Below, piece by piece: positions 12,391 to 64,000 of a DNA stretch of 64,000 bases (within the stretch, counting starts at the first letter, position 1; every line of letters starts with the position of its first letter). The stretch lies in IMG/VR virus record IMGVR_UViG_3300029747_000004; one strand, 5' to 3'. The notes under the pieces were generated by a model that had not been told where the DNA came from, made no database searches, and saw only the letters and a list, made by a program, of their open reading frames with translations. This DNA is from a virus (lineage: Duplodnaviria > Heunggongvirae > Uroviricota > Caudoviricetes). Both the position numbers and the translations under genes were made by a program.

Positions 12391-13366
12391 GTTTTCTCTT
12401 CCATTCTCTTTTACTCAATTTATTAGCCTCATGTTGACAATACTCACATCTATATGTTGTATTATTTTTATAATCGTTAATATAAACCACCTCACCACAA
12501 TCAACACATATAATCTTCTTTGGCTCATAGTCTAACGTATATTCGTCTTTATCTTTATACTTCGGCTCATATTTTGGAACACACGTTCTACAATATAACG
12601 AATTATTATTTTGCTCATTCATATTAATGTTTTTGCCAATAACATTACCTCTAACTTTAAATAATTTACCGCAGTTCTTACATTTCTTGTATCCTCCACC
12701 ATTTTTCCAATTTAAATAAGTAAATGCAAGCTCATAATAACTTGATTCATCAAGTTCTAGCACTACAGGGTCATTTTCATCATTAGAAATATAATCAATG
12801 CGTTTACTCGTATCGTCATTCTTGTAATTCAAGTGAATAAGTGCCGCTGGTTCTCCATTAATTAACTCATTAATAAAATAATCTCTTTCTTTTGATGGAA
12901 TAGTAACATGTGCCATCTTAAACACGGTAATATCACTTTCATTCTCCCAATGTGTCGGTTCCCTACGAGACATATCCATGAACTTAGCAATTGCTAAATA
13001 ACAAAATAATAATTTTTCTTTCTTAATATCGTTGAAGGACACGATATATTCCAATTCACTTTTTCTGATTTTTATAGTGTCTACAATATTTCTCCAGGGC
13101 ATATCTTTCATTTTCTTAATATAACTCTTTATAGTCTTTGCATACGCGGATAGGTGAAACATATTTGTCCTTTTATTCATCCAATCCTCAACATAGGCAA
13201 TAATCACTTGTTCGTCTGTTGAGATGTTATAATATGCGTCCCAAATTAAATTAAATAGAATAGATGGAATAGTTGCCTTGTTAACTGGGGCATCTAATAC
13301 CACATCGATTCTTCTTCTTGTGTTAAAATAATAATTAAACTTCTCCATGGCTTTCTCCCCCAACAT
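12374..13366 (-). CDS. hypothetical protein with multiple zinc-ribbon motifs
   Basis: CKNCGK...CRTC and CVDCG...CEYC pairs; immediately upstream of the putative RNAP gene. Confidence 0.35.
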   Translation of the reverse strand: MLGEKAMEKFNYYFNTRRRIDVVLDAPVNKATIPSILFNLIWDAYYNISTDEQVIIAYVEDWMNKRTNMFHLSAYAKTIKSYIKKMKDMPWRNIVDTIKIRKSELEYIVSFNDIKKEKLLFCYLAIAKFMDMSRREPTHWENESDITVFKMAHVTIPSKERDYFINELINGEPAALIHLNYKNDDTSKRIDYISNDENDPVVLELDESSYYELAFTYLNWKNGGGYKKCKNCGKLFKVRGNVIGKNINMNEQNNNSLYCRTCVPKYEPKYKDKDEYTLDYEPKKIICVDCGEVVYINDYKNNTTYRCEYCQHEANKLSKREWKRKHDGNR

Positions 13367-16088
13367 AAATATTTTTCATTTTAAATTTCTTACGACAGCA
13401 ACTAAACTCATCATCATCTTCAATAACTGCCTCTGGATACTCTATTATGTAATTTGCTTTGTACAATAAATTATCTACAATTACATCTCCGCACATATCC
13501 CAAACGACACCTTTAGCATTCGGCTTATCATATAACAAGTCAATTAATATATCACAAAGCACTTTCTCGTTAGAGCATACCTCGTAAAATCTACCCTTAA
13601 AAATCAAATCAATAATTGATTTATCTGCTGCACCATCCTCTTCCTCAGTTACCTCGTCAGTTTTTGTCTTTTTAACAAGATTAACAATACTTGCTTTATA
13701 TTCATCGTAAACATCTCTCACCTTATAAAAATCAACGCCACTATACTCAACGCCAGATTTTATAAGTTCCTTATCAAATTTTACTTGCGGTAAACAATTA
13801 AAATCATTAAATTTCTTGTCAACAGCCCATGCAATACGATTTACAGTACCTGGGGACATATCAACTGGGCATCTATTATAAAAAATCTCACGTTCTTTTA
13901 ATAGCTCGTCCGTCAAATTCTCACTTGTAAGCAGTTCATCTAACGAAATATGATATTTTTGCTTAAGCTTTGAGTCAACCCTTTTCACATAGCTGTCGTA
14001 CTGTGTTTTTGTGGTGTTATATCTATAAATAAAGAAAAATGGCTTTCTATAAGCACAAATTCTCTTATTAAACTCCTTTTCAAGCGTAATTTCATCACTA
14101 TCTTGAGCATTTGGCAGACATTGAGATAAATTATTCCATTGCGTATTCATTGGAGTCATCTTAATTCCTTTTACAGAATCAATACTTAGCTGCTGAAAAT
14201 GTTGAATACAGATAGTTCTATACTCCAATTCGTCCCATTCTTTACTACCAATTTCAAATTTTGACTGTAAGTTTAACATACTAGTACCAATGTTAGTGAT
14301 AGATCCGACCTTGTTCTTAAATCCTCGTTTATTACTTGCTGCAATATTTTCTTCTGTAGGAAGTATCTTTGGAGCTTTTCTCTGCTGACAGTCAAGTGCT
14401 GGCAGCAACCTGTGCTTTTCAACAAGAATTTTACTGTTCGTAGTAAAAATTATGTCTCCATCTTCATCGCAGCCAGATTCAGCTATGCGTAAAGTATCCC
14501 ATGAATTAAGAATGATACAATCTTTTATATACCTAAACCAGTAATCCGCACTAGCAGAATATTTAATTTTTTGCTTCACTATGTTGAAATGAGCACACAT
14601 TGGGGATCTCATGCACACAACTTCTGAAACATGTTTGTCTCTCCAAAATTTATGATAAATCTCACCAGCGCCCAACAAACCTTGAACTTTTAATCCAAAA
14701 ATATCTTCACACATTGCATATGGATCACCAGAAATAAGAGCAAAATTACCAGAAACGTCAATTGTTGAAATCTTGGCAAGCCGAATTTTCTTACGAATCA
14801 TACGCTCAATTCTTGAACGAACATATGGATCATTAATTAACTCTCTATTTATCATTAAAGCACGCGCAATTACATCAGATTTCATAACATTTTTATCATT
14901 CAACCCCGTCCCAGCAAGATAAACAATTGATTTTCTTGGATCAAGCGCAATAATATCTTGAATTTCTTCAACGGTGGGTGAGATTAACTCATCAATATCC
15001 TCGTCACTCAAATAATAACTTTGAGTAAACTGATAATTCAAATTTCTACTCTCATCAAGCTCTTCGGACACCTTTGTAAGCCTAAAATCATACCCATGTT
15101 TAATACAATTTTCATAATACGACTCATAACTATCATATGCATCCCATAATTTTAGCTGACTTGTGGTAATAATTACGTCTGCATCCATTACGTTACGCTC
15201 TTGCCCCCATGCGTCAATCACTGTAGTTTTATTAGCAATAGTTTTTGCAAATTCCTTAAAATCAAACGTGAATAACATTCCTTTTAAAAATGCACAACGT
15301 GCGCACACCCCAGAAGAAATTTCGTCAAGTCCAATAGCTTCTTTTGTGATTTTTTGGCTATATTCTGGAGTCATAATTCCGCAACCATCATTTATTTCAA
15401 TTTCAATGCTCTTACCTTTGACTTCGCGCACAATTGGATCATTAGAGTTAATCCCGTCACTAACCTCAATAACATCTGCATCGAATGAAGTATTTGTCCC
15501 CCTAACAACAATCATTTTAGGCCAAGAAACTGCATTAGATGTTGATGATGTAAGCGCAAAATATGCTTCAAGTTTGGCAGGAGTATACTCTATTTTTTCA
15601 TTCCTGCCATTATTAATCATCTTATATACAGACGGATACAACTTTGAATTAATGAATAGCACCGTACTCATTTTTAACCCGCCTGGAGTGCCATATAATC
15701 TATGAAATAGCTCCCCATTAATGATTAAACTTTTGCAACAATTATCAAAATGAGACTTTTTGTCAAACTGAATGGACACTAAATTTGGCTCAAATTGTAG
15801 GCTATACAACTCATCATATTTACTTTTAATACTTTTCTTATTTTCTCTGGTATCATCAAGAGTTTTTAAATACTTTATTTCCTTTCGCACCTGTTCCGCT
15901 TTTAAATAGTTATCACCGGTGCCTGTCATATCTTCAATCCATTTAATTAACTGACTATGACCAACGCTGATCACTATTTCAGAATTACAAGCTATATCAC
16001 TTAATGAAATATTAACATTGTAATTATTCATGTCCAAATAAGTGCTATTCAACTTGTATATATACTTTTGTGGTCTTAATGGTTTCAA
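13335..16088 (-). CDS. putative single-subunit two-barrel RNA polymerase (YonO/QDE-1-like), TTG start
   Basis: 917 aa; ESGCDEDGDIIFTT carries a DxDGD signature like the catalytic NADFDGD/DYDGD of double-psi beta-barrel RNAPs; no other recognisable motif; inference. Confidence 0.45.
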   Translation of the reverse strand: MKPLRPQKYIYKLNSTYLDMNNYNVNISLSDIACNSEIVISVGHSQLIKWIEDMTGTGDNYLKAEQVRKEIKYLKTLDDTRENKKSIKSKYDELYSLQFEPNLVSIQFDKKSHFDNCCKSLIINGELFHRLYGTPGGLKMSTVLFINSKLYPSVYKMINNGRNEKIEYTPAKLEAYFALTSSTSNAVSWPKMIVVRGTNTSFDADVIEVSDGINSNDPIVREVKGKSIEIEINDGCGIMTPEYSQKITKEAIGLDEISSGVCARCAFLKGMLFTFDFKEFAKTIANKTTVIDAWGQERNVMDADVIITTSQLKLWDAYDSYESYYENCIKHGYDFRLTKVSEELDESRNLNYQFTQSYYLSDEDIDELISPTVEEIQDIIALDPRKSIVYLAGTGLNDKNVMKSDVIARALMINRELINDPYVRSRIERMIRKKIRLAKISTIDVSGNFALISGDPYAMCEDIFGLKVQGLLGAGEIYHKFWRDKHVSEVVCMRSPMCAHFNIVKQKIKYSASADYWFRYIKDCIILNSWDTLRIAESGCDEDGDIIFTTNSKILVEKHRLLPALDCQQRKAPKILPTEENIAASNKRGFKNKVGSITNIGTSMLNLQSKFEIGSKEWDELEYRTICIQHFQQLSIDSVKGIKMTPMNTQWNNLSQCLPNAQDSDEITLEKEFNKRICAYRKPFFFIYRYNTTKTQYDSYVKRVDSKLKQKYHISLDELLTSENLTDELLKEREIFYNRCPVDMSPGTVNRIAWAVDKKFNDFNCLPQVKFDKELIKSGVEYSGVDFYKVRDVYDEYKASIVNLVKKTKTDEVTEEEDGAADKSIIDLIFKGRFYEVCSNEKVLCDILIDLLYDKPNAKGVVWDMCGDVIVDNLLYKANYIIEYPEAVIEDDDEFSCCRKKFKMKNIYVGGESHGEV

Positions 16089-43418: not shown

Positions 43419-44564
43419 ATGTTAGAAATAACAGATGATGTCATCATTGAGGAGCAAGAAGAAAAACAAGTAGATGATGAAAAATATGTAGAGATAAGAG
43501 AACCATATGGGTTTATTTACATAACTACTAATATTGTAAATGGTAAACGATATTTGGGGCAAAAAACATTTGATAGAAAATGGAAAGATTACATCGGTAG
43601 TGGCATTGCATTTAAGGCGGCAGTTAAAAAATACGGAAAAGAAAATTTTATAAGAAATATTGTTTTTATATGTTATTCTGTGGAAGAATTAAATCAGATA
43701 GAGTTTGAACTTAGTGTATTTTTAAACGTTGTTGAGTCTGATAATTGGTATAATATGGTTTATGGTGGTGGGACTACATCGGGGATAACTGTCTCTGAAA
43801 AGACACGAAAGAAGTTGAGTGAGGCACGTAGAAACAATACTATACTACATCCAGAATATGATGCTTACCACAGTCAAAAAATGATTGAATTTCATAAAAA
43901 ACACCCTGAAGCGAAAGAAAATAGTAGTGACAGGCTTAAACAGCTATGGCAAAATTCAGATTTTATTATAAAAATGGAGCAACACCGCGAAGGGTATTGG
44001 AGTGACGAGAACAATCATACAAAACGTAGAGAAATATTAAAAGAAATATGGAAGGATCCAGATGTTAAGGAGATTAGACTTCGTGGATTAAGAGAGTGGA
44101 ATGCACAGTCAAATAACCACGATATTAGAAGTGAATTGTCAAAACGCAACTGGGATAAGCCAGGTTATAGAGAAGCACAAATTTTAAGAAATACTGGAAG
44201 CGGAAATCCAATGTATGGTGTTCGTAGATATGGGATTGATAGCACAAATTTTATACCAGTATATTGTATAGAAATGCACAGGATATTCTGGGGAGCAACT
44301 CAAGCAGAGAATGAACTACATATTAAAGGTTCTGATATAGCGCAATGCTGCAAGGGAAGGCGTGGGCATAAGTCTGCTGGGAAGTATCCAGTTACAGGTG
44401 AGAAACTACAATGGAAGTATGTTTATGATCAAGCTAGTAATGATGGAACTATCATCAAAGGTGCAATAACACTTGGCTATATAACAGAAGAAGAAGTTAA
44501 TAATTATTTGGATAGTTTAAGACAGAAAGGAAATGATATAAATGGCACTATGGAAGAAGAATGA
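43419..44564 (+). CDS. GIY-YIG homing endonuclease (I-TevI-like, NUMOD-type repeats)
   Basis: YGFIYITTNIVNGKRYLGQ ... YIGSG; GITVSEKTRKKLSEARRNN-like repeats. Confidence 0.75.
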   Translation: MLEITDDVIIEEQEEKQVDDEKYVEIREPYGFIYITTNIVNGKRYLGQKTFDRKWKDYIGSGIAFKAAVKKYGKENFIRNIVFICYSVEELNQIEFELSVFLNVVESDNWYNMVYGGGTTSGITVSEKTRKKLSEARRNNTILHPEYDAYHSQKMIEFHKKHPEAKENSSDRLKQLWQNSDFIIKMEQHREGYWSDENNHTKRREILKEIWKDPDVKEIRLRGLREWNAQSNNHDIRSELSKRNWDKPGYREAQILRNTGSGNPMYGVRRYGIDSTNFIPVYCIEMHRIFWGATQAENELHIKGSDIAQCCKGRRGHKSAGKYPVTGEKLQWKYVYDQASNDGTIIKGAITLGYITEEEVNNYLDSLRQKGNDINGTMEEE

Positions 44565-50771: not shown

Positions 50772-50794
50772 CATTAGAAAGTATTGACAAATAA

Positions 50795-50823
50795 TGGAAA
50801 TCATGATATAATCAATATTGTAC
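50795..50823 (+). promoter_or_regulatory. sigma70-type promoter (TTGACA-17-TATAAT) feeding tRNA cluster 1; duplicated at 54600
   Basis: ttgacaaataatggaaatcatgatataat, near-identical to 54600-54628. Confidence 0.5.
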
Positions 50824-50954
50824 TGAGGGAGACAACACAAAATGAATGGGAAGGGATGATCCATATGAGGTATACAAGAGAAATTAGTAGTTCGATGGAT
50901 GAGCCACCCTGCTTAGATTGCCCTGCGCCATGGCGATAAACTGGCGCACAATAT

Positions 50955-51104
50955 GAACCCGTAGCTCAGTTAGTAGAGCATCGGACTTGGGATATTAACC
51001 TAGCGGTTAGGCAGGTGGCTGTTAACCACCCAAGGGAGGTTCGACCCCTTCATATCCCGCCATTAATCCGAGGGTCGTGGGAGCAAAGCCCACCGGGTTT
51101 ACCA
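50955..51104 (+). tRNA. tRNA-Lys(UUU)-like gene interrupted between anticodon nt 34/35 by a complete tRNA-Asn gene; atypical D-loop (AGTTAGTAGA) and T-loop (AGCAAAG)
   Basis: Acceptor GAACCCG/CGGGTTT, D-stem GCTC/GAGC, anticodon stem TCGGA/TCCGA, T-stem GTGGG/CCCAC, ACCA end; after removing 50989-51062 the loop reads CTTTTAA. Confidence 0.4.
50989..51062 (+). tRNA. tRNA-Asn(GUU), nested inside the anticodon loop of the tRNA-Lys-like gene
   Basis: Acceptor GGGATAT/ATATCCC plus GCCA, D-stem CCTA/TAGG, anticodon arm GGTGG-CTGTTAA-CCACC, T-arm GGAGG-TTCGACC-CCTTC. Confidence 0.6.
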
Positions 51105-51360
51105 GCAGAGAATTAAGCTACGGCTTCTCTGAATTCCCAACATACCGCCATGCGTGGGTGAGAAGAGAAGAAGGCGGCCGAAGCTCAATGGGAGAATAGA
51201 GCATTTTAATCTTAGCACGGCCCGTGCGCGGGACATCTTTCGAGATGAAAAAAGGGTATTGCGGGGAAGCTCCCCGCACAATGCGGGATTGATGTAATGA
51301 TAGCATAAGTGCCTTCCAAGCATTTTGTGCCAGTTTGAATCTGGTATCTCGCTCCAATAT

Positions 51361-51527
51361 AGTCGTGTAGCCAAGTGGTAAGGCACGGGACTTCGTAGAA
51401 TAGTTTAAAAGTAAAACACTCTATCGAAGGATAGACCTTTACTGGATAACAAAGAGATGTTTGTGCAAGACAAACTTCTACGTCCATGACTCCCGGATCG
51501 TTGGTTCGAACCCAACCACGACTGCCA
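51361..51527 (+). tRNA. tRNA-Gln(UUG) gene interrupted between nt 34/35 by a 93-nt class-II tRNA-like insert
   Basis: Acceptor AGTCGTG/CACGACT plus GCCA, D-loop AAGTGGTAA, anticodon stem CGGGA/TCCCG, T-arm GTTGG-TTCGAAC-CCAAC; loop after removing insert = CTTTGAC. Confidence 0.45.
51394..51486 (+). tRNA. nested class-II (long variable arm) tRNA-like gene, anticodon uncertain (loop CGAAGGA)
   Basis: Acceptor CGTAGAA/TTCTACG plus TCCA, D-arm GTTT-AAAAGTA-AAAC, anticodon stem TCTAT/ATAGA, variable arm CTTT..AAAG, T-arm GTTTG-TGCAAGA-CAAAC. Confidence 0.4.
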
Positions 51528-51559
51528 GATTTATTTAGCAGTAAAAGAAGTGATGACGT

Positions 51560-52327
51560 TTGAGTAATATGACAGATGGAAATGTTGGCAAGAGAATCGG
51601 AATTTATGATGTACTATATGAATGTGATGAAAAGCGTAACGATGGGCATAAGTTATATCATGTAAGGTGTGTATTTTGTGGTTGGGAAACTGACATGCAA
51701 CTCAGTGATGCAAAGAGAGCTGCTAAATGTACACATTACAATAAATTAACACAAGAACAAAAAGATGCTTGGTACGATAAAAATAAAAAGCAGTGTTTGT
51801 ATTGCGGAAAAGACATTCCATTTAATGAAAGATGTCAAAGTGAATATGTAATAAAAAATTTTTGTAATCAAAGTTGCGCTGCATCTTATAACAACAAGGG
51901 AGTTAGAAGAAATCACAAAGATGGTAGGGACTATAATGTAAAATATTGTTTAAATTGTGGAAAAGAGATCTCATATAAAAATAAATATTGCTCTTCTAAG
52001 TGCCTGCAAGATTATCGGCATAAGCAATACATAGAACGGTGGAAGAATAGCATTGAAGACGGAATAGTGGGAGAATATCAAATTTCAGACCACATTCGAA
52101 GATATTTGTTTGAAAAATATGATAATAGATGCTCAATATGTGGATGGAACAAAATTAATGAATTTACTGGAAATGTACCGCTTGAAGTCCATCATATAGA
52201 CGGAAATTACACTAATAATACAGAAAGCAATCTGCAATTGCTTTGTCCAAACTGCCATTCCCTGACGAAAACCTACAAAGCAGGAAACATAGGAAGTGGC
52301 AGAAAAGGACGTCAAAAATATAATTAA
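51560..52327 (+). CDS. HNH homing endonuclease (paralogue of 53833..54597)
   Basis: CSICGW...EVHHIDGNYTNNTESNLQLLCPNCH; shares N-terminal block with 53833 product. Confidence 0.7.
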   Translation: MSNMTDGNVGKRIGIYDVLYECDEKRNDGHKLYHVRCVFCGWETDMQLSDAKRAAKCTHYNKLTQEQKDAWYDKNKKQCLYCGKDIPFNERCQSEYVIKNFCNQSCAASYNNKGVRRNHKDGRDYNVKYCLNCGKEISYKNKYCSSKCLQDYRHKQYIERWKNSIEDGIVGEYQISDHIRRYLFEKYDNRCSICGWNKINEFTGNVPLEVHHIDGNYTNNTESNLQLLCPNCHSLTKTYKAGNIGSGRKGRQKYN

Positions 52328-52380
52328 ACAATACAAAATGAATGGTTGGCAAACCAGTTTAAACAAAGCTTCCACAGCAT

Positions 52381-52464
52381 GCCGTGGTCGCATAGTGGTC
52401 GAGTGCATCAGTTTTGTAATCTGACAGCGAAAGCTCATCATAGGTTCGAATCCTATTCACGGCT
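52381..52464 (+). tRNA. class-II tRNA (84 nt, long variable arm), anticodon ambiguous (loop TTTTGTAAT; GUA/Tyr or UGU)
   Basis: Acceptor GCCGTGG/TCACGGC, D-loop TAGTGGTCGAG, variable arm AGC-GAAA-GCT, T-arm ATAGG-TTCGAAT-CCTAT. Confidence 0.5.
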
Positions 52465-52538
52465 GACTACAATTCCTCACCTTCACGTGGTGTAGTTGTT
52501 TAAACTAACGAGGAAATTAACAACGGAGGTACAAAACA

Positions 52539-52661
52539 ATGACTAAGACCGTAGAAATGCTTCAGGCACGAATCAATCTTCTAAAGCAGCGCGATCCTGT
52601 AGGAAATGCAAATATCATTCGAAAGATCCAGCGTGAAATTCGAAAACTAGAAGGAAATTAA
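52539..52661 (+). CDS. small hypothetical protein (40 aa) between tRNAs
   Basis: RBS AACGGAGGTACAAAACAATG. Confidence 0.25.
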   Translation: MTKTVEMLQARINLLKQRDPVGNANIIRKIQREIRKLEGN

Positions 52662-52676
52662 ATAACATGGTGGGAT

Positions 52677-52760
52677 GGCAGAGTTTGATTTAATGCACTA
52701 GATTCGAAATCTAGCGTGCTTTTAGGAGCACCGTGGGTTTAAATCCCACTCCTGCCGCCA
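52677..52760 (+). tRNA. tRNA-Ser(CGA), class II, encoded CCA; atypical D-arm and TTTAAAT T-loop
   Basis: Anticodon arm CTAGA-TTCGAAA-TCTAG, variable arm GTGCT-tttagg-AGCAC, T-arm GTGGG-TTTAAAT-CCCAC, 3' TCCTGCC-G-CCA. Confidence 0.5.
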
Positions 52761-53296
52761 GAGGGTTGGTGTATCCTGCGGAACTACTGCAAACACCGAG
52801 GCAACAGGCAATGTCTCGCTATGAAAATAGCAAAGATGTGGAACCGGATTTTACTAAAGCATAGTTCAGGACAATATGCGGAGTTAGTCGGAATTAAATG
52901 AGGAAACCCTGAGATCTACACATCAACCTGTTATGGGGGTAGGCTCCGAGAGCTAGCAGGAGAGCAAGGGCCTGTGGAAGTTTGGTTTGACTCCAGATGC
53001 CTCCACCACAACCGCAAGATGTGTTATGCGGTATAAAAATGACGAAACATCCTTTAAGGGTAGGGGATCTGAAATGTGAATCCAGCCACTTAAAGTGAGT
53101 CCTATAGCCCATGATACTAACGGACTATGCGTGAATGGGTGATTTATCACTCTAAAAAGTATCTGAAACGCTAGGCAAATTTGTTCGATGATAGTAAGCG
53201 CTACGCTACTATATAGTGTTTACCGGAGAATCCCTGTTGGTTATCGCTTATCCACAAGGTAGCTAGGATTTAATCTGAAAGAAAAAGCGAATTTAT
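52761..53296 (+). ncRNA. ORF-free GC-elevated block between tRNAs: candidate large structured ncRNA(s) (for example ROOL/GOLLD-type, group I intron, or tRNA-like modules ending in CCACCA)
   Basis: ~530 nt with no credible ORF on either strand, GC well above genome average, multiple GC helices, tRNA-like 3' end GCCTCCACCA at ~52985-53007. Confidence 0.3.
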
Positions 53297-53448
53297 TGTC
53301 CACTAGCTCAATTTGGTGAGAGCCACGGCCTTGATGGATTCATTTCGGGATAGTGTAGTTCAAATCTATGATCCATCACAAATAAGCCGTAAGCCCTAAC
53401 AAGGCATAGTCTGGGTTCGAGGCCCAGGTGGACTACCAGCCATGCTGA
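53297..53448 (+). tRNA. tRNA-like gene (loop CTT/ATAA if spliced, anticodon UAU?) interrupted after nt 34 by a ~50-nt acceptor/T-arm minihelix insert; encoded ACCA
   Basis: Acceptor TGTCCAC/GTGGACT, D-arm GCTC-AATTTGGTGA-GAGC, anticodon stem ACGGC/GCCGT, T-arm CTGGG-TTCGAGG-CCCAG; insert GATGGAT...ATCCATC with TTCAAAT loop. Confidence 0.35.
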
Positions 53449-53650
53449 CTTCGCATGTAAAACCAGTTGAGAAGAAACTGCTCGAAAGGTTATATAATAC
53501 GCAAATGGTGGCTGTCCGACGGCGCGGTTCGAGTCCGCAAGCTATAGGTTATATAATTCAAGTTAGTCTTCCGAGGCAATCCGAGTTCATCACGACTTTA
53601 TTAGAGTGATTGCTAAAGGATAAACGCAGGTGATGCTGTTAGTAGTCCAC

Positions 53651-53680
53651 GGTAGGTTCGGAGATACCCTACCATATTTT
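53651..53680 (+). terminator. hairpin GGTAGG-loop-CCTACC followed by ATATTTT (terminator-like) just before tRNA-Arg
   Basis: Direct reading. Confidence 0.35.
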
Positions 53681-53682
53681 AT

Positions 53683-53757
53683 GCAAGTATCGTCTAACGG
53701 ACAGGACATGAAGCTTCTACCTTCAGAATGAGAGTTCGACCCTTTCTACTTGCGCCA
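53683..53757 (+). tRNA. tRNA-Arg(UCU), encoded CCA
   Basis: Acceptor GCAAGTA/TACTTGC-G-CCA, anticodon arm TGAAG-CTTCTAC-CTTCA, T-arm GAGAG-TTCGACC-CTTTC. Confidence 0.6.
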
Positions 53758-53832
53758 TATTTGATTGTAGTATTAGTAGATACAAAAAGAGACAAATACG
53801 TCTAATGCACAATCTAATTAATTTAATTAGAG

Positions 53833-54597
53833 GTGTATTACAATATGAGAGTGGACCCGAATGCACACATAGGAGAACAATATGGAATATATGTAATTAA
53901 AAGCGTATCTGAAGAAAAAGACAAGTATGGACATTATATTTATAATGGTGTATGTAGTGAATGCGGATATGTTCATTCTGCAAAGTTGGATTATTTTAAA
54001 CGGAAACAGATCAATACATGTACTCACTTTAGTAAATTAACACAAGATCAGAAAGACGCCTGGTACGAAAAGAATAAAAAAGTTTGCTTATGTTGTGGGG
54101 AATATATTCCAATGGGCAATAAAACATTCTTTGAATATAAAATATCGAGATTTTGTAATCAAAATTGTGGCGCAATTTTCGCAAACAAAAATACAAAAAA
54201 GAAAACATATTATTGTCAAAAATGTGGTAAACCGATTGGATATGGCCATGATCAGTGTGGCAATAAACAGTTATGCGATGATTGCAACCCTTTTCGAGTT
54301 GATTGGGGCTTTATTACATACGGAGAAATGAAAAGCAGAAGAAAATATCAAGTTAATAGTAGAATCAGAGAAATTGCAAGAACATTATATAAAAACTCTG
54401 GAAGACCACAGATGTGTATGAATTGTGGGTATGATAAGCACTATGAAATTTGTCATATCAAAGGAATATCAACTCACTCAGATGATACATTTATATCAGA
54501 AATTAATAACATTGATAATTTGATTGCGCTATGTCCAAATTGCCACTGGGAATTCGACCACGGTTTGTTAGACTTGCAAGCGATAACACAATCTTAA
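53833..54597 (+). CDS. HNH homing endonuclease (paralogue of 51560..52327)
   Basis: CMNCGYDKHYEICHIKG...LIALCPNCHWEFDHG. Confidence 0.7.
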   Translation: MYYNMRVDPNAHIGEQYGIYVIKSVSEEKDKYGHYIYNGVCSECGYVHSAKLDYFKRKQINTCTHFSKLTQDQKDAWYEKNKKVCLCCGEYIPMGNKTFFEYKISRFCNQNCGAIFANKNTKKKTYYCQKCGKPIGYGHDQCGNKQLCDDCNPFRVDWGFITYGEMKSRRKYQVNSRIREIARTLYKNSGRPQMCMNCGYDKHYEICHIKGISTHSDDTFISEINNIDNLIALCPNCHWEFDHGLLDLQAITQS

Positions 54598-54599
54598 CT

Positions 54600-54628
54600 T
54601 GACAGAATACGGAAATCATGATACAATA
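54600..54628 (+). promoter_or_regulatory. sigma70-type promoter feeding tRNA cluster 2 (duplicate of 50795 module)
   Basis: ttgacagaatacggaaatcatgatacaat. Confidence 0.45.
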
Positions 54629-54721
54629 ACTACAGTTCAAGGGACAGTACAAAATGAATGGAAAGGCGCATGCAGCAAATGTTTAAGTTTAATATTTTGG
54701 TAAAATATGAAATAAACGCGT

Positions 54722-54844
54722 CTTGAGATATGGGAACGTCTGGACGACAGAATAAAGTGCACGGAGTGGGCGGCACGGACAGCAAATTTACATATGAAAT
54801 TACGGCATTAATTTTACTCCTTGGTTCAATTCCAAGGGTTCCCA
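54722..54844 (+). ncRNA. ~120-nt tRNA-like RNA (acceptor-like GGGAAC/GTTCCC closing helix, T-arm CCTTGG-TTCAATT-CCAAGG), Y-RNA/YrlA-like candidate
   Basis: Direct reading of complementary ends and canonical T-arm; long internal region with repeated CACGGA. Confidence 0.3.
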
Positions 54845-54864
54845 AATCCAACTAATTTTAATAT

Positions 54865-54992
54865 GCCGGTGGTAGCTTAACTGGATAGAGCGCGTACATC
54901 ACACAACGTGAAATGAAAATTTCGCGCACAGCAATTGAACAAGATAGGGCTGTTAACCCCGAGGTTGTTGGTTCGAGTCCAACACACCGGCA
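54865..54992 (+). tRNA. long tRNA-like gene (~125 nt) with internal GNRA-capped hairpin insert (CGTGAAAT-GAAA-ATTTCGCG); anticodon unresolved (GGGCTGTTAACCCC suggests GUU)
   Basis: Acceptor CCGGTGG/ACACCGG, D-arm GCTT-AACTGGATA-GAGC, T-arm GTTGG-TTCGAGT-CCAAC. Confidence 0.35.
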
Positions 54993-55275
54993 CAAGAGAA
55001 TAAAAGGCACTCACAGCAAATTTATATTAGAAGATTATAATGTGGTTTTATAGTAAGATAATAAGTGCCTTGATTATTGAAATGATAGAGAGACTAGCAG
55101 CAACTTTATTTAAAAAAGATATAAGTTATTATTGGTTCTGCCAGAAATGATATTTATGGTCTCTCGAAAAAAAATAAAATCTCCAAAGACATAAACAGCA
55201 ATCTTATATAACGACCTGACTTTTAACCAGACTACGTAAATGTGTGTCTTGAGATTTTAGAAATAAAATCAGATA

Positions 55276-56844
55276 ATGGAGGAAAGAGCAATGGAATTTA
55301 TGAACGCAGTAAAGCAGACTCTAAACAATGAATACAATATGTCCATCACTGAGAACGGAGCTGTTGGATTTAGAACTACTGGCAAGGAACTACTTGATCT
55401 TAATTTTGCGGTTGCTTCTCTTCGTAAGATGAGTGATGAGGAAGTAACTAAGAGATTTATGAAAGCATTTTGTGAGAATAAGATGCTGGCTATGCGTTGG
55501 TTGTTTTATGCTAGAGATGCAAGACAGGGGATCGGTGAGCGCAGACTATTTAGGGTTGTTATGAAACATCTTGTAGAATCTAATCCTGAAATGGTTATCC
55601 CTGTTATCAATCTGATTCCTGAATACGGTAGGTATGATGATTTGTGGTGTCTACTTGACAACGAGGAATCTGCAAAAGTTATATATCAGATTGTAGATAA
55701 ACAGCTTAAAGAAGATTGGGATAATATGAGTACTGGTAAGCCCATTTCTCTCACAGCCAAGTGGATGCCGTCAATTAACGCATCCTCTGAAAAGACTAAG
55801 GAATATGGTAAGAAGCTCTGCAAGGCACTTCACATGTCCGAACGTGAATATCGCAAGGCTCTCAGCAAGCTTCGTAAGTATCTCGATGTCGTTGAAGTTA
55901 AGATGTCCAACAAGGATTGGTCTGAAATCAAGTATGAAACAGTTCCTTCTCGTGCAAATCTTATCTATAACAGCGCATTCCTCAGAAATGATGAAGTACG
56001 TCGTAGGGAATATCTTGGAAAGCTTGAAAAAGGAGAAACGAAGATTAATGCGTCAACGCTTTTCCCCCATGATATTGTTCATAAATATGCTATTCACTAT
56101 GGGTGGAAATGTAGTCTAAATCAGAAGGACGCAACTATTGAGGCTCTGTGGAGGGCTCTGCCAGATACTGTAAACGGTTGCAGTAACACTATCGTTGTTG
56201 CTGATGGTTCTGGTAGCATGATAACTCAGGTTGACCGTAGTTCCAGTGTGACGGCACTTGAGGTTGCAAACGCACTTGCGATTTATTTTGCAGAACATTC
56301 TTCTGGTCAGTTTAAGGACAAGTACATTACTTTCTCTGAACGTCCACAAATCGTTGATTTCAGTAATGCCACTTCACTCCATGATAAGCTGCAGATTGCA
56401 CTGACACATGATGAGTGTGCGAATACCAATATTGAGAAGGTATTTGATCTGATTCTTGATACTGCGATTAAGAATAGAATGAAGCAGGAAAATCTTCCTC
56501 AGAATATTCTGATTATCTCAGATCAGGAATTTGATAGATGCGCTTCCTGTGGAAATAATAGATCATCGTGGGATTTTAAGAAACCGAACCAGAGGCTGTT
56601 CGATGTGATTGCTCAGAAGTATGCTAATGCAGGATACTCAATCCCAAGGTTAGTATTCTGGAACGTTAATAGTCGAACTGGCACAATCCCTGTAAAGGAA
56701 AATGAACTTGGTGTAGCACTTGTTAGCGGATTCTCTGTTAACATCGCCAAGATGGTTTTGAGCAACAAGCTTGATCCTTATGAGTGCCTACTCGAAACTC
56801 TGAACTCTGAGCGCTATGCTCCAATTGAAGCTGCGCTGAGTTAA
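55276..56844 (+). CDS. rsr: Ro60/Rsr orthologue (TROVE domain plus vWA domain with MIDAS)
   Basis: 522 aa; N-terminal helical region with LFYARDARQGIGERRLF; C-terminal VVADGSGSM (DxSxS MIDAS), ITFSE, ILIISDQEF, RLVFWNVNSRTG...GFSVN colinear with human Ro60 LLAVDVSASM ... VAFSDE ... FIVFTDNETF ... KLIVCGMTSNG...GFDTG. Confidence 0.65.
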   Translation: MEERAMEFMNAVKQTLNNEYNMSITENGAVGFRTTGKELLDLNFAVASLRKMSDEEVTKRFMKAFCENKMLAMRWLFYARDARQGIGERRLFRVVMKHLVESNPEMVIPVINLIPEYGRYDDLWCLLDNEESAKVIYQIVDKQLKEDWDNMSTGKPISLTAKWMPSINASSEKTKEYGKKLCKALHMSEREYRKALSKLRKYLDVVEVKMSNKDWSEIKYETVPSRANLIYNSAFLRNDEVRRREYLGKLEKGETKINASTLFPHDIVHKYAIHYGWKCSLNQKDATIEALWRALPDTVNGCSNTIVVADGSGSMITQVDRSSSVTALEVANALAIYFAEHSSGQFKDKYITFSERPQIVDFSNATSLHDKLQIALTHDECANTNIEKVFDLILDTAIKNRMKQENLPQNILIISDQEFDRCASCGNNRSSWDFKKPNQRLFDVIAQKYANAGYSIPRLVFWNVNSRTGTIPVKENELGVALVSGFSVNIAKMVLSNKLDPYECLLETLNSERYAPIEAALS

Positions 56845-57081
56845 TAAATCTTAAACCGTGGTCGCTCCACATTCTATAAGGTTATATCAATTTTAGTATT
56901 AATGCTGCATTGGGTGTCGCTCATTCATGTAAGTCAAACATTATCTAGAAATTGTAGTTAGTAATAGAAAATAATCCAAAGGAGGATTTTGCTTATGATT
57001 GTATCTGCTTATTCTGATTTGGAGGACGAGCCGAAGGGCTAGTCTATGTCCCGAGTAAGACATAAAACTGCTCAATTATAT

Positions 57082-57203
57082 GGCCATGTAGCCCAATTGG
57101 AAGAGGCAACAGACCGTCGATAGCCAGAGCGTAGCGAGGTCATCACTTGCATCGACGACCATTAAAATCTGTACAGGTATGGGTTCGAATCCCATTATGG
57201 CCA
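57082..57203 (+). ncRNA. tRNA-like RNA (~120 nt) with a ~50-nt hairpin (CGTCGAT...ATCGACG) in place of/inside the anticodon loop; Y-RNA/YrlA-like or intron-containing tRNA candidate
   Basis: Acceptor GGCCATG/TATGGCC, D-arm GCC-AATTGGAAG-GGC, stem ACAGA/TCTGT, T-arm ATGGG-TTCGAAT-CCCAT. Confidence 0.35.
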
Positions 57204-57361
57204 AAGTAGCAATATCAACAACCTCCACGTGGTGCTACTTGGGTAATGCTAATAGTTGATAGGCGCGTAATGGTGCTGGACTGGCCTGATTGGGGAGAGT
57301 CGTTTCGAATAATCTTCTGTGTGGAGAAGATAAAATACCAATCACCACACATTTATATTAT

Positions 57362-57439
57362 GGCGCGGTAGTCCAACTGGCAGGAGACAAATCACTCAAA
57401 ATGATTACAGTATGGTTTCGAATACCATCCGCGCTACCA
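57362..57439 (+). tRNA. class-I tRNA with anticodon CAA (Leu-type anticodon on a short-variable-arm body; atypical), encoded CCA
   Basis: Acceptor GGCGCGG/CCGCGCT-A-CCA, anticodon arm AATCA-CTCAAAA-TGATT, T-arm ATGGT-TTCGAAT-ACCAT. Confidence 0.45.
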
Positions 57440-57683
57440 AGCTGGGCTGGTTCTAACTACTTCACAAGTCACAGGCTAAAATGTGGTACCTGAAGCAGCG
57501 GTGGTTGTGGCACCTGTGGAATACCGATAAAGAAAAGCCACCATTGACACTGAATCAATGTAAAATAAACTGCAAGTCGGGATACCGGGCGGAAAAGATA
57601 CAGGTATAAGAGGATAAAGAAAAGTTCAGTTAGCATCCTCTGGCGTAGACTGACGCTAAAAGCAACAAAGAAAGGATGTTTTC

Positions 57684-58735: not shown

Positions 58736-58765
58736 CAATACAAAATGAATGGAAGGGGAGATAGC

Positions 58766-59911
58766 TTGATTTATCTTGATAATGCTGCTACTACACGTAT
58801 GTATCCAGAGGCAATACAGGCAGCAACTGACGTTATGACAAACTACTGGGCTAATCCATCAAGTAGTTATAGTATCGCCGATAACCCTAGAATTTTAATC
58901 GAAAATATACGGCAGCAGTTTGCGGATGATTTAAATTGCATTCCAGAAGAATTAATTTTTACTAGCTCTGGTTGTGAAGCAAACAACCTTGCAATTATTG
59001 GTTTTCTAAAAAATAATACAGGATATGAATTTTACACAAGTGATATGGAACACGCTTCAATTAGTGAATTTGTTGAAAGTCGTCCTGCAACGCTAGGTCA
59101 TGTTACTATTCCTGTAAATGAAATTGGACAGATTAATCCTGATAAACTTAGAATTTTGTTTATAGAGCGACAAAGACTTTCAAATAGGAAACCCTTTGTT
59201 TCTATTCAGGCGGCTAATTCAGAGATTGGGATAAAGCAGGATATCAAAGCGCTGGCCGAGGTTGTACATCAATACAATGGAATTATTCATTGTGATGCGG
59301 TGCAGCTTTTCCCGGAACAACGCATTAATGTTGACGATTGGAATGTGGATATGCTATCAATTTCGGCGCAAAAATTCCATAGTGGACGCGGGTGCGGTGT
59401 ATTATTTGTTCGAGACAACATTGAAATTTCACCGACAACTTATGGAAGTCAAGAAAACCACCGACGCGGAGGCTCGTATAATACCTCAGCTATAGTAGCC
59501 GCAGGTAAGGCGCTTGAAATTACTAGACTATATGATTCAAAATCTTACGTAAAATCGCTTCGTGACAAACTACTGAACAAACTATTAACCATACCAGATA
59601 CGAGGCTCAACGGCCCTAGAAACAAAGATAATAGATTAGTAAATAACATAAGCTTGACTATTGATGGTGTGTCTGCGGAGCGACTTGTTATTCTTTGTGA
59701 CTTGGCCGGTGTTATGATAGCAAAAGGTTCAGCATGTCAATCTCATGAGCCAACTCCGAGTAAGACACTATTAGCTATAGGACTTACACCAGAACAAGCA
59801 CTAAGTACAATTAGAATTACTCTTGATGAGTTTAATACAGAGGAAGAGATTGAACAGGCCGCAAGCATCATTTCAAAACTAGTTTGGAGGATTAGAAATA
59901 ATGAGGCGTAA
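58766..59911 (+). CDS. NifS/IscS-like cysteine desulfurase (class V PLP aminotransferase), TTG start
   Basis: LIYLDNAATTRMYPE N-terminus; SISAQKFHSGRGCGVLFV (PLP-Lys region); C-terminal active-site Cys region GSACQS. Confidence 0.7.
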   Translation: MIYLDNAATTRMYPEAIQAATDVMTNYWANPSSSYSIADNPRILIENIRQQFADDLNCIPEELIFTSSGCEANNLAIIGFLKNNTGYEFYTSDMEHASISEFVESRPATLGHVTIPVNEIGQINPDKLRILFIERQRLSNRKPFVSIQAANSEIGIKQDIKALAEVVHQYNGIIHCDAVQLFPEQRINVDDWNVDMLSISAQKFHSGRGCGVLFVRDNIEISPTTYGSQENHRRGGSYNTSAIVAAGKALEITRLYDSKSYVKSLRDKLLNKLLTIPDTRLNGPRNKDNRLVNNISLTIDGVSAERLVILCDLAGVMIAKGSACQSHEPTPSKTLLAIGLTPEQALSTIRITLDEFNTEEEIEQAASIISKLVWRIRNNEA

Positions 59912-61552: not shown

Positions 61553-62323
61553 ATGGGGAGAGGTTGGGAAGATTTAATAGGTCAAAGATTTGGCAGATTA
61601 ATTGTATTAGAACGTGTAAATGATTACATTTCTCCTAAAGGAAGGCATATTCCGCAATGGAGGTGCATTTGTGATTGTGGGGAAGAGTGCATCGTAACCA
61701 GCAATAATTTAAAAAAGAAAAATGGCACAAAGTCGTGTGGGTGTATTAGACGCGAAAATGCTGCTATTATATCTAAAAAAACACGACATAAAATATTAAA
61801 GTATGACATGTCAAATGAATTTGGAATAGGATATTTATCTAATACAGGCAATCCATTTTACTTTGACGAGGAAGATTTTGACAAAATTAAAGATTATTGT
61901 TGGTATGAATGTGTTACCTGCAGTGGGCATCATGACGTTCGAGCATGGAGCAAAGACGAGAAGAAAGCAATTTTGTTGCATCAATTGATAACTGGAAAGA
62001 AAAATATAGATCATAAAAACCGCAATCCTTTGGATAATAGAAAAATAAATCTAAGAGATGCAACACCATCACAACAAGTACAAAACCAACCCGTAAGAAA
62101 AACAAACACTAGTGGTTTTATTGGAGTACGATTTTGTAAGAACATACAGAAATGGCGAGCTAGGATAGTCATCAATTATAAAGAGATTAATCTTGGATGT
62201 TTTATAAATAAAGATGACGCAATTCGTGCTAGGCTTAAAGCAGAAGCAGAGTACTTTGGTGAATTTGCTCCGCAACGTAATCTATTTGAAGAATACGGAA
62301 TTCAGACAATACAAAATGAATGA
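61553..62323 (+). CDS. HNH homing endonuclease with C-terminal AP2 DNA-binding domain
   Basis: HKNRNPLDNRKINLR (HNH core) and GFIGVRFCKNIQKWRARIVINYKEINLGCFINKDDAIRARLKAEAEYFGEFA (AP2). Confidence 0.7.
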   Translation: MGRGWEDLIGQRFGRLIVLERVNDYISPKGRHIPQWRCICDCGEECIVTSNNLKKKNGTKSCGCIRRENAAIISKKTRHKILKYDMSNEFGIGYLSNTGNPFYFDEEDFDKIKDYCWYECVTCSGHHDVRAWSKDEKKAILLHQLITGKKNIDHKNRNPLDNRKINLRDATPSQQVQNQPVRKTNTSGFIGVRFCKNIQKWRARIVINYKEINLGCFINKDDAIRARLKAEAEYFGEFAPQRNLFEEYGIQTIQNE

Positions 62324-63298: not shown

Positions 63299-63314
63299 GG
63301 TAGTGAACAAAATA

Positions 63315-64000
63315 TGGTAAAAGTTAAAAACGATTTAACAGGTAGAACATTTGGGAGATTAAAAGTTATAAAACAAGTTGAAGACCATGTTCAATCAAAC
63401 GGGCGTCATGTAGCTATGTGGGAGTGTATATGTTCTTGTGAAGATCATAATACTGTCTTTGTTATTGGTGATAGTTTAAAAGGTGGAAAAACAGCTTCGT
63501 GTGGATGTTTACATAAAGAATGTATTTCTAAAATTGGAATTGATAATAAAAAAGGCAATCGGTATGATTTATCTGGAGAATATGGTGTAGGTTGGACTTC
63601 TAACACCAATAAAGAATTTTATTTCGACCTAGAAGACTACGATAATATTAAAGAATATACTTGGTATGAAAATATAGACCAAAATAACTATCATTCTTTA
63701 AGAGCATATGATAAAAAGTCTAATATAAAAATTGTAATGTCATGGATTATTTGTGGTAAATTTTTTGATCATAATAATTTAAATCCTTTAGATAACAGGA
63801 AACAAAACTTACGTCCTGCCACAATGATAGAAAATGCACGAAATCATAGTAAACAAAAGAACAACATTTCTGGTTTTATAGGAGTATATTTTAGAAAACG
63901 GGATCAAAAATGGTGTGCTCAAATTAATTTTAATAAAAAACATATTTTAATTGGAGCGTTTAATAACAAAAAAGATGCTATTATCGAACGTCTTAAGGCA
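63315..64000 (+). CDS. HNH-AP2 homing endonuclease, 3'-truncated by window edge (paralogue of 61553..62323)
   Basis: GRTFGRLKVIKQVEDHVQSNGRHVAMWECICSCEDH parallels GQRFGRLIVLERVNDYISPKGRHIPQWRCICDCGEE; DHNNLNPLDNRKQNLR; GFIGVYFRKRDQKWCAQINF. Confidence 0.6.

Follow-up and report, generated by a model that had tools for sequence, protein, structure and literature searches.

Results

A complete tRNA-Asn gene within the anticodon loop of a tRNA-Lys(UUU) gene

Can one tRNA gene be housed within another, and if so, how would two tRNAs be made from it? This question is raised by positions 50955-51104 of a 64,000-nucleotide stretch (hereafter the window) of a human-gut phage of the Caudoviricetes (IMG/VR record IMGVR_UViG_3300029747_000004), where the preliminary description placed a whole tRNA-Asn in the anticodon loop of a tRNA-Lys(UUU)-like gene. 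Our analysis confirms this arrangement. The 5' exon of the outer tRNA (50955-50988, plus strand) comprises the acceptor 5' strand GAACCCG, the D arm GCTC-AGTTAGTA-GAGC, the anticodon stem 5' strand TCGGA and the loop nucleotides C32, U33 and U34. It is followed by a 74-nt insert (50989-51062, plus strand), a complete tRNA-Asn(GUU) with discriminator G73 and encoded CCA. The 3' exon (51063-51104, plus strand) provides U35, U36, A37 and A38, the anticodon stem 3' strand TCCGA, the variable loop GGGTC, the T arm GTGGG-AGCAAAG-CCCAC, the acceptor 3' strand CGGGTTT, A73 and CCA.

ARAGORN and Rfam both identify the insert as tRNA-Asn(GTT), with an Rfam RF00005 score of 49.2 bits against a gathering score of 29. 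In silico deletion of the insert joins the exons as ...AGCAUCGGACUU|UUAAUCCGAGGGUCGUGGGAGCAAAG..., restores the loop CUUUUAA, and yields a 76-nt sequence that ARAGORN calls tRNA-Lys(ttt) with four regular stems. The outer gene is reported neither by ARAGORN in intron mode nor by Rfam on the unspliced DNA, even at E <= 10, and its identification therefore rests on the in silico deletion. The minimum-free-energy fold of the whole 150-nt RNA is the nested double cloverleaf (-51.2 kcal/mol, z = -1.7). A promoter-like site (50784-50812, plus strand; TTGACA, 17-nt spacer, TATAAT, with TG before the -10 hexamer) matches the consensus at 12 of 12 positions and lies 143 nt upstream of the nested gene, although this is a consensus match only.

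Direct DNA similarity searches of the locus against 50,697 deposited phage genomes gave no match, exact-pattern scans of IMG/VR for the outer 5' half with the window's D-loop gave none because relatives differ by one base, and a first scan of a genome collection with poorly chosen patterns from a protein alignment found nothing. Nevertheless, the same arrangement is present in independent assemblies from different samples (loci of related phages, numbered with the prefix L: L001-L003, L129, L211 and L212), drawn from IMG/VR, ENA and Logan. It is therefore neither an assembly artefact nor chance, even though brute-force deletion shows that ARAGORN is permissive, too much so to define boundaries.

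Two details of the preliminary description require correction. The D-loop is AGTTAGTA (8 nt) and not AGTTAGTAGA; it keeps G19, and only G18 is replaced, by A. The T-loop AGCAAAG keeps C56 and A58. The hint that the outer molecule is degenerate is not supported: a 15-mer scan for the T arm, which otherwise gave mostly chance hits and served as a negative control, revealed the identical T arm in intact tRNA-Lys(CUU) and tRNA-Asp(GUC) genes of unrelated phages. The unusual elbow (A18, G19, A54, G55, C56) is thus a recurrent variant and probably functional. It should be noted that the window allele has G1-U72 in the outer tRNA and an A10-C25 mismatch in the inner one. As only three alleles at about 95% identity exist, covariation within this one gene has no power.

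Split tRNA genes recur in the window and in related phages

Interestingly, the same window holds three more split tRNA genes. In a tRNA-Gln(UUG) gene (51361-51527, plus strand) a 93-nt tRNA-like insert (51394-51486; CGTAGAA...TTCTACG T CCA) lies between nucleotides 34 and 35, and the same insert is present in at least 10 related phages. In a tRNA-Ile(UAU)-like gene (53297-53438, plus strand), which follows directly after the drum RNA, a 49-nt minihelix insert (53333-53381; GATGGAT...ATCCATC A CAA) lies between nucleotides 34 and 35. In a gene with anticodon UAA (57082-57203, plus strand) a 47-nt minihelix insert (57115-57161; CGTCGAT...ATCGACG A CCA) lies between nucleotides 32 and 33; here Rfam reports a tRNA of 41.4 bits with a 53-nt insertion, and a homologous uninterrupted gene is present in L001. 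This split Leu gene lacks an encoded CCA and is directly followed by an HDV-like (theta-type) ribozyme candidate (57204-57261, plus strand). The Rfam match to HDV-F-prausnitzii is below threshold (27.3 bits against a gathering score of 44, E = 0.059), but the sequence is conserved after the Leu(UAA) genes of four relatives, and such a tRNA-adjacent context has been described (PMC10879173).

To search for further cases we deleted any element consisting of a 7-bp stem, N and CCA and re-ran ARAGORN. This revealed about 25 distinct split genes (Lys, Gln, Leu, Ile, Arg, Asn and Thr) for seven anticodons in related gut phages, probably of Oscillospiraceae. None with the junction in the anticodon loop was found in 1.1 Mb of unrelated viral loci, and more distant relatives gave only L216 and one false positive, L222. 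In a tail-specificity control with 15 other trinucleotides, six gave no hit, while most of the remaining hits were off-register parses of the same genes or genuine CAA-tailed inserts, and a few belonged to the hairpin-ACAGCAA element or were not examined further. A covariance model of the short inserts could not be built, as the alignment did not keep the acceptor strands in register; the descriptor scan used instead is noisy at one mismatch.

The inserts have 19 different acceptor-stem sequences, all with 6-7 of 7 positions paired. All 25 have a 5-bp T-like stem (24 fully paired, one 4/5) closed by G53-C61 in 25/25, with C at loop position 3, and a tail of N-CCA or, rarely, N-CAA. The nucleotide preceding the insert is U in 23 of 25 and C in 2, and the first insert base is G in 19 and C in 6. 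A 12-bp stack, U(-1), G(+1) and RCCA are features that bacterial RNase P generally reads. Removal of the insert always restores a 7-nt loop with U33 and A37. The spliced outer genes are 97.4% paired over 21 cloverleaf pairs and 18 pairs show double-sided changes, although this test is partly circular because ARAGORN selected the genes.

Filled and empty alleles of split genes

Alleles with and without the insert exist for members of the family. The Leu gene of L142 spliced in silico is identical to the intact Leu gene of L137, a sister phage, over 86/86 nt; L184 compared with L143 gives 98.8%, and the Gln genes of L142 and L143 give 94.6%. For the nested Lys gene itself no empty allele with the same exons was found in IMG/VR, but at the same slot, with identical flanks, sister phages carry an ordinary tRNA-Lys(UUU). 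Split genes are almost always the only copy of that anticodon in the locus (44 of 45).

These data bear on the possibility that only the inner tRNA-Asn matters and that the outer halves are a dead gene or a processing scaffold that presents the inner tRNA to RNase P and the 3'-end enzymes and is then discarded. In favour of this view, the outer gene is invisible to standard tRNA finders unless the insert is removed, the window allele carries G1-U72, the slot can be refilled with an unrelated, ordinary tRNA-Lys, and tRNA punctuation illustrates that a tRNA can be excised without the flanks being re-joined. However, all four outer stems are intact in three alleles, the loop is restored to exactly CUUUUAA, and the unusual elbow recurs in intact genes. 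Moreover, across the family the outer genes are ordinary tRNAs while the inserts have degenerated to minihelices, which is the opposite of what a scaffold model predicts. Together with the sole-copy status of the split genes, this makes the scaffold reading doubtful.

RNA-repair genes in the vicinity and a proposed processing pathway

Profile scans of about 60 window ORFs with Pfam, PHROG and NCBIfam found no ligase or RNase inside the window. At its end, however, an HD-domain protein begins (63314-64000, plus strand; 265 aa in relatives, cut off by the window end), the first gene of an RNA-repair neighbourhood that continues beyond the window. In L211 this neighbourhood holds an Rnl5 ligase, RlaP, a P-loop kinase with HD domain, a Thg1-like protein, a metallophosphoesterase and a DHH protein. 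In close relatives the Rnl5-type ligase, kinase and phosphoesterases lie about 2-7 kb beyond the window end; in L211 and L212, which carry the same nested gene, the cluster lies about 13 kb downstream of it. The ligase matches Pfam PHA02142 and RNA_ligase and is homologous to the NgrRnl structure 5COT (phmmer E = 6.6e-30, two matched stretches, the best over residues 5-116). DRB0094-family (Rnl5) ligases are reported to be 140-fold enriched in phages with tRNA-adjacent theta ribozymes (PMC10879173). The cassette is also present in relatives without split tRNAs and is thus permissive rather than diagnostic. The HD protein is found in 24 of 26 loci of the clade with split tRNAs and in 2 of 92 other relatives, a difference that could simply reflect phylogeny; sequence searches of this protein against solved structures were uninformative, and a deaminase matched only weakly, as a dCMP deaminase.

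Of the three alternatives put forward in the preliminary description (an intron-like or split tRNA needing ligation, a processing scaffold, or a decoy), the comparative evidence favours the first. We propose that the 74-nt tRNA-Asn is a tRNA-shaped intron in a functional tRNA-Lys(UUU) gene. One transcript would fold as a cloverleaf within a cloverleaf, and host RNase P would recognise the inner acceptor/T-arm stack with its NCCA tail and cut between outer U34 and inner G1, leaving a 3'-OH on the 5' exon. A second, unidentified endonuclease would cut immediately after the inner CCA, releasing mature tRNA-Asn, while the two Lys halves stay together through their acceptor and anticodon stems. The nick would then be sealed by the Rnl5-type ATP-dependent RNA ligase, if necessary after healing of the ends by the neighbouring kinase and phosphoesterases. 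One gene would thus yield two tRNAs. In most other members of the family the insert has shrunk to a minihelix of acceptor stem, T arm and CCA, the minimal substrate of tRNA end-processing enzymes. In the absence of RNA data every enzymatic step, the identity of the enzymes and the production of spliced tRNA-Lys itself are inferred, and we consider this model about as likely as not. In particular, no enzyme appears to be known that would cut a Clostridia or phage precursor precisely after an internal CCA, and B. subtilis RNase Z is inhibited by CCA. In addition, RNase P products (3'-OH and 5'-P) need no kinase or phosphatase, so that the healing genes do not specifically support this route.

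Alternatively, the exons may be ligated after excision by a dedicated phage or host endonuclease that recognises the tRNA-shaped insert, with the ends healed by the phage kinase and phosphoesterase before sealing by Rnl5, or sealed directly by host RtcB. This would explain a cut after CCA without an unusual RNase Z, and the repair cluster with its kinase, metallophosphoesterase and further clade-enriched proteins, including the HD protein and several unknown ORFs just upstream of the ligase, speaks for it. As junctions occur after nucleotide 32, 34 or 35 with any following base, the ruler must be the insert's own shape. On the other hand, no recognisable splicing endonuclease or other RNase domain was found in the 64-kb window or in the 10 kb beyond it, the healing enzymes are equally explained by the theta ribozyme candidate, which would leave a cyclic phosphate, and by repair of anticodon-nuclease damage, and the strong U(-1), G(+1), NCCA signature fits RNase P well. 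We regard this route as possible but less likely.

Discussion

Bacteria and their viruses are thought to have only self-splicing group I introns in tRNA genes, while protein-dependent tRNA splicing is a hallmark of archaea and eukaryotes. In the literature that we could search we found no description of nested tRNA genes, tRNA-like introns or phage tRNA introns. Like group I introns in bacterial tRNA anticodon loops, for example in cyanobacterial tRNA-Leu(UAA) between U34 and A35, the inserts described here occur in a bacterial or phage setting, often after U34, with presence/absence polymorphism and proximity to homing endonuclease genes. However, they measure 47-93 nt, whereas group I introns exceed 200 nt, and no group I intron match was found in 50800-57600 even at E <= 10, so self-splicing is implausible. 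Archaeal and eukaryal introns with a bulge-helix-bulge motif, removed by a splicing endonuclease and sealed by RtcB or Trl1, likewise are short, lack a ribozyme core and leave exon halves held together by the tRNA body. Here, by inspection and in the predicted fold, there is no bulge-helix-bulge: the 5' junction follows a 3-nt single strand and the 3' junction lies in an 8-nt single strand (GCCA+UUAA) at the same end of the insert's acceptor helix. The positions are 34/35, 35/36 or 32/33 rather than 37/38, the intron is itself a tRNA or a tRNA minihelix ending in CCA, and the nearby ligase is of the Rnl5 type. Insertion at an integrase att site was also rejected, as there are no flanking repeats.

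In tRNA punctuation of mitochondrial transcripts and in MALAT1-mascRNA an embedded tRNA or tRNA-like fold recruits RNase P and 3'-end enzymes, but the flanks are separate products, whereas here they are the halves of another tRNA and would have to be ligated. In Nanoarchaeum equitans and Cyanidioschyzon merolae split and permuted tRNA genes are also separated at the anticodon loop and joined at the RNA level, through BHB-type leader pairing or circular intermediates, while here the halves are on one transcript. Phage T4 Pnkp/Rnl1 reseals tRNA-Lys(UUU) cleaved by PrrC, with the ligase, kinase and phosphoesterase encoded near the phage tRNA genes; there the break is inflicted by a host defence on a host tRNA, 5' of U34, and here it would be programmed in the phage's own gene, 3' of U34, and sealed by a ligase of a different family. 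Theta ribozymes share the setting of gut-phage tRNAs, but define tRNA 3' ends and do not interrupt tRNAs, and the study describing them does not mention introns (PMC10879173).

It is an even possibility that these elements represent a third kind of tRNA intron, mobile and tRNA-shaped, which borrows the tRNA end-processing machinery for excision and depends on a phage-encoded Rnl5 ligase for exon joining, with Lys[Asn] as the least-degenerate member. Phage tRNA supply would then be conditional on the phage's own RNA-repair enzymes. This would add a splicing pathway in the bacterial world, give a physiological substrate to Rnl5-type ligases, whose natural role is unknown, and explain why gut phages with tRNA arrays so often carry RNA-repair genes. 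It would also show that standard tRNA finders miss a substantial share of phage tRNA genes, in this window 4 of about 10. The inserts may also protect the genes from the many homing endonucleases in the array, and the released CCA-ended minihelices may have a function of their own, for example as decoys for acceptor-end-targeting defence toxins.

A different view is that the unspliced or nicked composite RNA, or the excised minihelices, are themselves the functional products, acting as decoys or sponges for host tRNA-targeting nucleases or acceptor-end-modifying toxins, or as partners of the adjacent Ro-like protein. We consider this unlikely, although it is compatible with splicing rather than exclusive of it. 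A decoy requires neither exact restoration of seven different anticodon loops nor sole-copy status, and a Lys-specific decoy in particular is weakened because Gln, Leu, Ile, Arg, Asn and Thr genes are split in the same way. It is noteworthy, however, that the tRNA slots are hypervariable between phages that are about 95% identical, as expected in an arms race, and that a Ro-like (DUF2828/VWA) RNA-binding protein and other tRNA-like RNAs lie within the same array. In addition, two insert flavours carry non-canonical but conserved loops, GTCATCA and GGCAGCA.

Architecture of the nested gene

The preliminary description of a complete tRNA-Asn gene lying in the anticodon loop of a tRNA-Lys(UUU)-like gene holds. 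Window positions 50955-51104 read GAACCCG TA GCTC AGTTAGTA GAGC A TCGGA CTT, followed by 74 nt and then TTAA TCCGA GGGTC GTGGG AGCAAAG CCCAC CGGGTTT A CCA. The 74 nt at 50989-51062 are called tRNA-Asn(GTT) by ARAGORN and score 49.2 bits on the Rfam tRNA model, whose threshold is 29. Removal of exactly these 74 nt in silico gives a 76-mer that ARAGORN calls tRNA-Lys(ttt), with the insert located between nucleotides 34 and 35, while standard tools applied to the unedited DNA report only the inner tRNA. The unconstrained MFE fold of the 150-nt RNA is the nested double cloverleaf (-51.2 kcal/mol, z = -1.7). A perfect TTGACA-17-TATAAT site lies 143 nt upstream.

Genomic context and the nested gene in related phages

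The window is part of a phage of about 160 kb from the human gut, and near-identical contigs come from human gut metagenomes. It carries a portal, a prohead protease, two tyrosine recombinases, PhoH and a YonO-like single-subunit RNA polymerase, the latter a 917-aa protein encoded at 13335-16088 on the - strand that matches Pfam RdRP (PF05183, E = 1e-14). The load of free-standing homing endonuclease genes is unusually high, with four GIY-YIG and three HNH genes (622-1542, 7139-8077, 11659-12390, 43419-44564, 51560-52327, 53833-54597 and 61553-62323), several of them between tRNA genes. The order PhoH, tRNA array, DUF2828 'Ro-like' RNA-binding protein also occurs in Tsamsa-like Bacillus siphophages. 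Relatives of the Ro-like gene sit mostly in Clostridia genomes, notably Oscillospiraceae, one being a 164-kb contig of a Hominicoprocola isolate.

We then compared the nested gene with the corresponding loci of related phages, numbered here with the prefix L. Loci L001-L003, L129, L211 and L212 come from independent assemblies and keep the Lys[Asn] arrangement with a few substitutions; in them the outer acceptor is G1-C72, while in the window it is G1-U72. In L004 the flanks on both sides are identical to the window but the slot holds an ordinary, unrelated 74-nt tRNA-Lys(UUU), and L008 and L009 carry the same ordinary gene behind the same upstream flank, although their downstream sequence differs. 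The slot is therefore a tRNA-Lys(UUU) gene in all of them. More generally, the tRNA genes in a given slot differ wholesale between phages that are about 95% identical, while the flanks are conserved, which looks like cassette exchange.

A family of split tRNA genes

To investigate whether the nested gene is unique we wrote a scan that deletes any 40-100-nt element made of a 7-bp stem (at most one mismatch), N and CCA, and then asks ARAGORN whether a tRNA now spans the join with the join in the anticodon loop. In the window this also identifies a Gln(UUG) gene at 51361-51527 with a 93-nt insert and a Leu(UAA) gene at 57082-57203 with a 47-nt insert, the latter already shown by Rfam as a tRNA with a 53-nt insertion. 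A descriptor scan added an Ile(UAU)-like gene at 53297-53438 with a 49-nt insert ending in CAA. Thus, about 4 of 10 tRNA genes in the array are missed or mis-called by standard finders. In the slot where L001 and L004 have the split Ile gene, L002 (3644-3721), L003, L008 and L009 carry a 78-nt sequence called 'tRNA-Ile(tat)' by ARAGORN, with the anticodon at position 37 and an odd 5' half, which may be another disrupted or atypical tRNA.

Across related phages, with a Ro-like protein at least about 64% identical, there are about 25 distinct split genes, with the anticodons Lys UUU, Gln UUG, Leu UAA, Ile UAU, Arg UCU, Asn GUU and Thr UGU. In contrast, 1.1 Mb of unrelated viral loci gave no hit with the join in the anticodon loop, and about 2.4 Mb of tRNA-rich loci from more distant relatives and bacterial genomes gave only L216, a related 165-kb contig, and one obvious false positive, L222. 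When 15 other trinucleotide tails were tried in place of CCA, six gave no hit. Most of the other hits were off-register versions of the same genes or genuine CAA-tailed inserts, and a few belonged to a separate hairpin-ACAGCAA element or were not examined.

Anatomy of the inserts

The inserts have 19 different acceptor-stem sequences, all 6-7 of 7 paired. A 5-bp stem with a 7-nt loop abuts the acceptor 3' strand, as the T arm does in tRNA; it is closed by G-C in 25 of 25 and has C at loop position 3. The loops are either canonical (TTCRANN) or one of two conserved variants (GTCATCA; GGCAGCA/GGCAGTA). A discriminator follows (A in 15, G in 6, T in 4) and then CCA, while three further genes end in CAA. 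The base before the insert is U in 23 and C in 2, and the first insert base is G in 19 and C in 6. Interestingly, only the Asn insert is a complete tRNA. The 66-93-nt inserts keep a D-arm-like TAGTTTAA..AAAC and a degenerate anticodon arm, whereas the 47-56-nt inserts are bare minihelices. What is conserved corresponds to what RNase P, tRNase Z and the CCA-adding enzyme generally need of their substrates, and we interpret the series as degeneration of nested tRNAs down to that minimum.

The outer tRNA genes

The outer genes look functional. After in silico removal of the insert every loop is 7 nt with U33 and A37. Most outer genes have canonical D and T loops, the Leu genes mostly have class II variable arms, and most outer genes encode CCA. 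Over 13 type I outer genes 97.4% of cloverleaf cells pair and 18 of 21 pairs change on both sides, although this test is partly circular as the genes were selected by ARAGORN. Two independent lines of evidence are provided by allele comparison and by gene content. Among filled and empty alleles, the Leu gene of L142 spliced in silico is identical over 86/86 nt to the intact Leu gene of L137, the alleles of L184 and L143 are 98.8% identical, and the Gln genes of L142 and L143 are 94.6% identical with a compensated anticodon-stem change. Of 45 split genes, counted per locus, only one shares its locus with an intact gene of the same anticodon.

Decay of the outer tRNA-Lys, which its unusual loops might suggest, is not supported. 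The identical T arm GTGGG-AGCAAAG-CCCAC (A54 G55 C56; 51077-51093 in the window), together with D loops that have A18 G19 in place of G18 G19, is a recurrent variant elbow in otherwise normal tRNA-Lys(UUU/CUU) and tRNA-Asp(GUC) genes of unrelated phages (loci L026, L027, L036, L081, L091 and L106), with intact Lys(CUU) and Asp(GUC) genes among them. The Lys(CUU) of L081 shares the D arm, variable loop and T arm with the outer gene of the window, while its acceptor and anticodon stems differ with compensation. The anticodon arm itself is a common phage tRNA-Lys arm. Several of the phages with this elbow also carry Ro-like and RNA-repair genes.

RNA repair genes and proposed processing

No ligase or RNase was found among the window ORFs scanned. 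However, an RNA repair and maturation cluster begins at an HD protein that starts at window position 63314 and is cut off by the window end, and continues about 2-7 kb beyond that end in phages with an identical primase, two of which (L211 and L212) carry the same nested gene. The cluster (L211:12761-21017, L213:15650-17935) holds an Rnl5-type RNA ligase (Pfam PHA02142 + RNA_ligase; E = 6.6e-30 to the Naegleria ligase 5COT), RlaP, a P-loop kinase with HD domain, a Thg1-like protein, a metallophosphoesterase and a DHH/RecJ-like protein. In L213 the ligase gene carries an intein with a LAGLIDADG endonuclease, and in L210 the ligase is split into two ORFs (173 and 180 aa). Parts of this cassette also occur in relatives without split tRNAs, indicating a permissive background and not a marker. 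Genes enriched in the split-tRNA clade include the HD protein and several unknown ORFs upstream of the ligase, but this enrichment cannot be separated from phylogeny. A published survey found DRB0094-family ligases 140-fold enriched in phages with tRNA-adjacent theta ribozymes (PMC10879173). Such an HDV-like (theta-type) ribozyme candidate is present at 57204-57261, directly after the CCA-less split Leu(UAA) gene; it is sub-threshold in Rfam (27.3 bits), but the sequence is conserved after the Leu(UAA) genes of L001, L004, L008 and L009.

Based on these data, and in the absence of RNA-level evidence, we propose that the inserts are introns and that RNase P cuts at their 5' end, which is supported by the signature of U(-1), G(+1), a 12-bp stack and NCCA. 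An unidentified endonuclease would cut right after CCA. As the following base is U, A or G, the ruler must be the shape of the insert. This 3' cut is the weakest step of the model. The exon halves would stay paired and the phage Rnl5 ligase would seal the anticodon loop, with RNase P chemistry giving the 3'-OH that an ATP-dependent ligase needs. Why the inserts exist is a matter of speculation. They may be selfish elements tolerated because a repair ligase is present, they may confer immunity of tRNA genes to the many free-standing homing endonucleases in the array, since the slots are hypervariable, or their products may have decoy functions.

The inserts are not group I introns, as they are too short and no match to a group I intron model was found in the part of the window searched (50800-57600), and they are not BHB introns, because both junctions sit at one helix end. 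In the proposed pathway they would work like tRNA punctuation or mascRNA combined with T4-style anticodon-loop ligation. No description of nested tRNA genes or tRNA-shaped introns was found in the full-text literature searched, which lacks most subscription journals, and the theta-ribozyme study (PMC10879173) does not mention introns. We therefore consider the finding to be new in kind, with the caveat that splicing is inferred.

Other elements of the tRNA array

The Ro-like protein embedded in the tRNA array (55276-56844) is a DUF2828 + DUF7788/VWA protein (PHROG 850, 'RNA-binding protein'), and tblastn finds relatives in 706 deposited phage genomes, typically large phages with tRNA arrays. 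In L212 and L008 the gene is interrupted, and in L212 a LAGLIDADG ORF lies in the gap. A drum RNA (Rfam RF02958, 59.1 bits) at 53183-53294 ends about 3 nt before the split Ile gene and lies 2 kb upstream of the Ro-like gene; an unexplained association of drum RNAs with a nearby protein gene has been noted before (Weinberg et al. 2017).

A second kind of element consists of a hairpin followed by ACAGCAA(T/A)TT and has four copies within 420 nt just upstream of the Ro-like gene (54730-55200). It sits inside tRNA-like genes, of which 54730-54845 has only an acceptor and a T arm, while 54867-54990 is a tRNA-Asn(GUU)-like gene with a roughly 52-nt non-tRNA insert near nucleotides 26-29. The element is also found at L138:9504-9553, L141:9561-9604, L005:5857-5917, L145:9641 and L134:16965, and is widespread in the broader phage group, including phages without tRNA-shaped introns. 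It may be a Y-RNA-like partner of the Ro-like protein or another intron class. Finally, a class V aminotransferase (cysteine desulfurase-like) is encoded at 58745-59911 next to the tRNA array, which is rich in U34 tRNAs (Lys, Gln, Leu, Ile, Arg), a possible link to 2-thiolation of U34.
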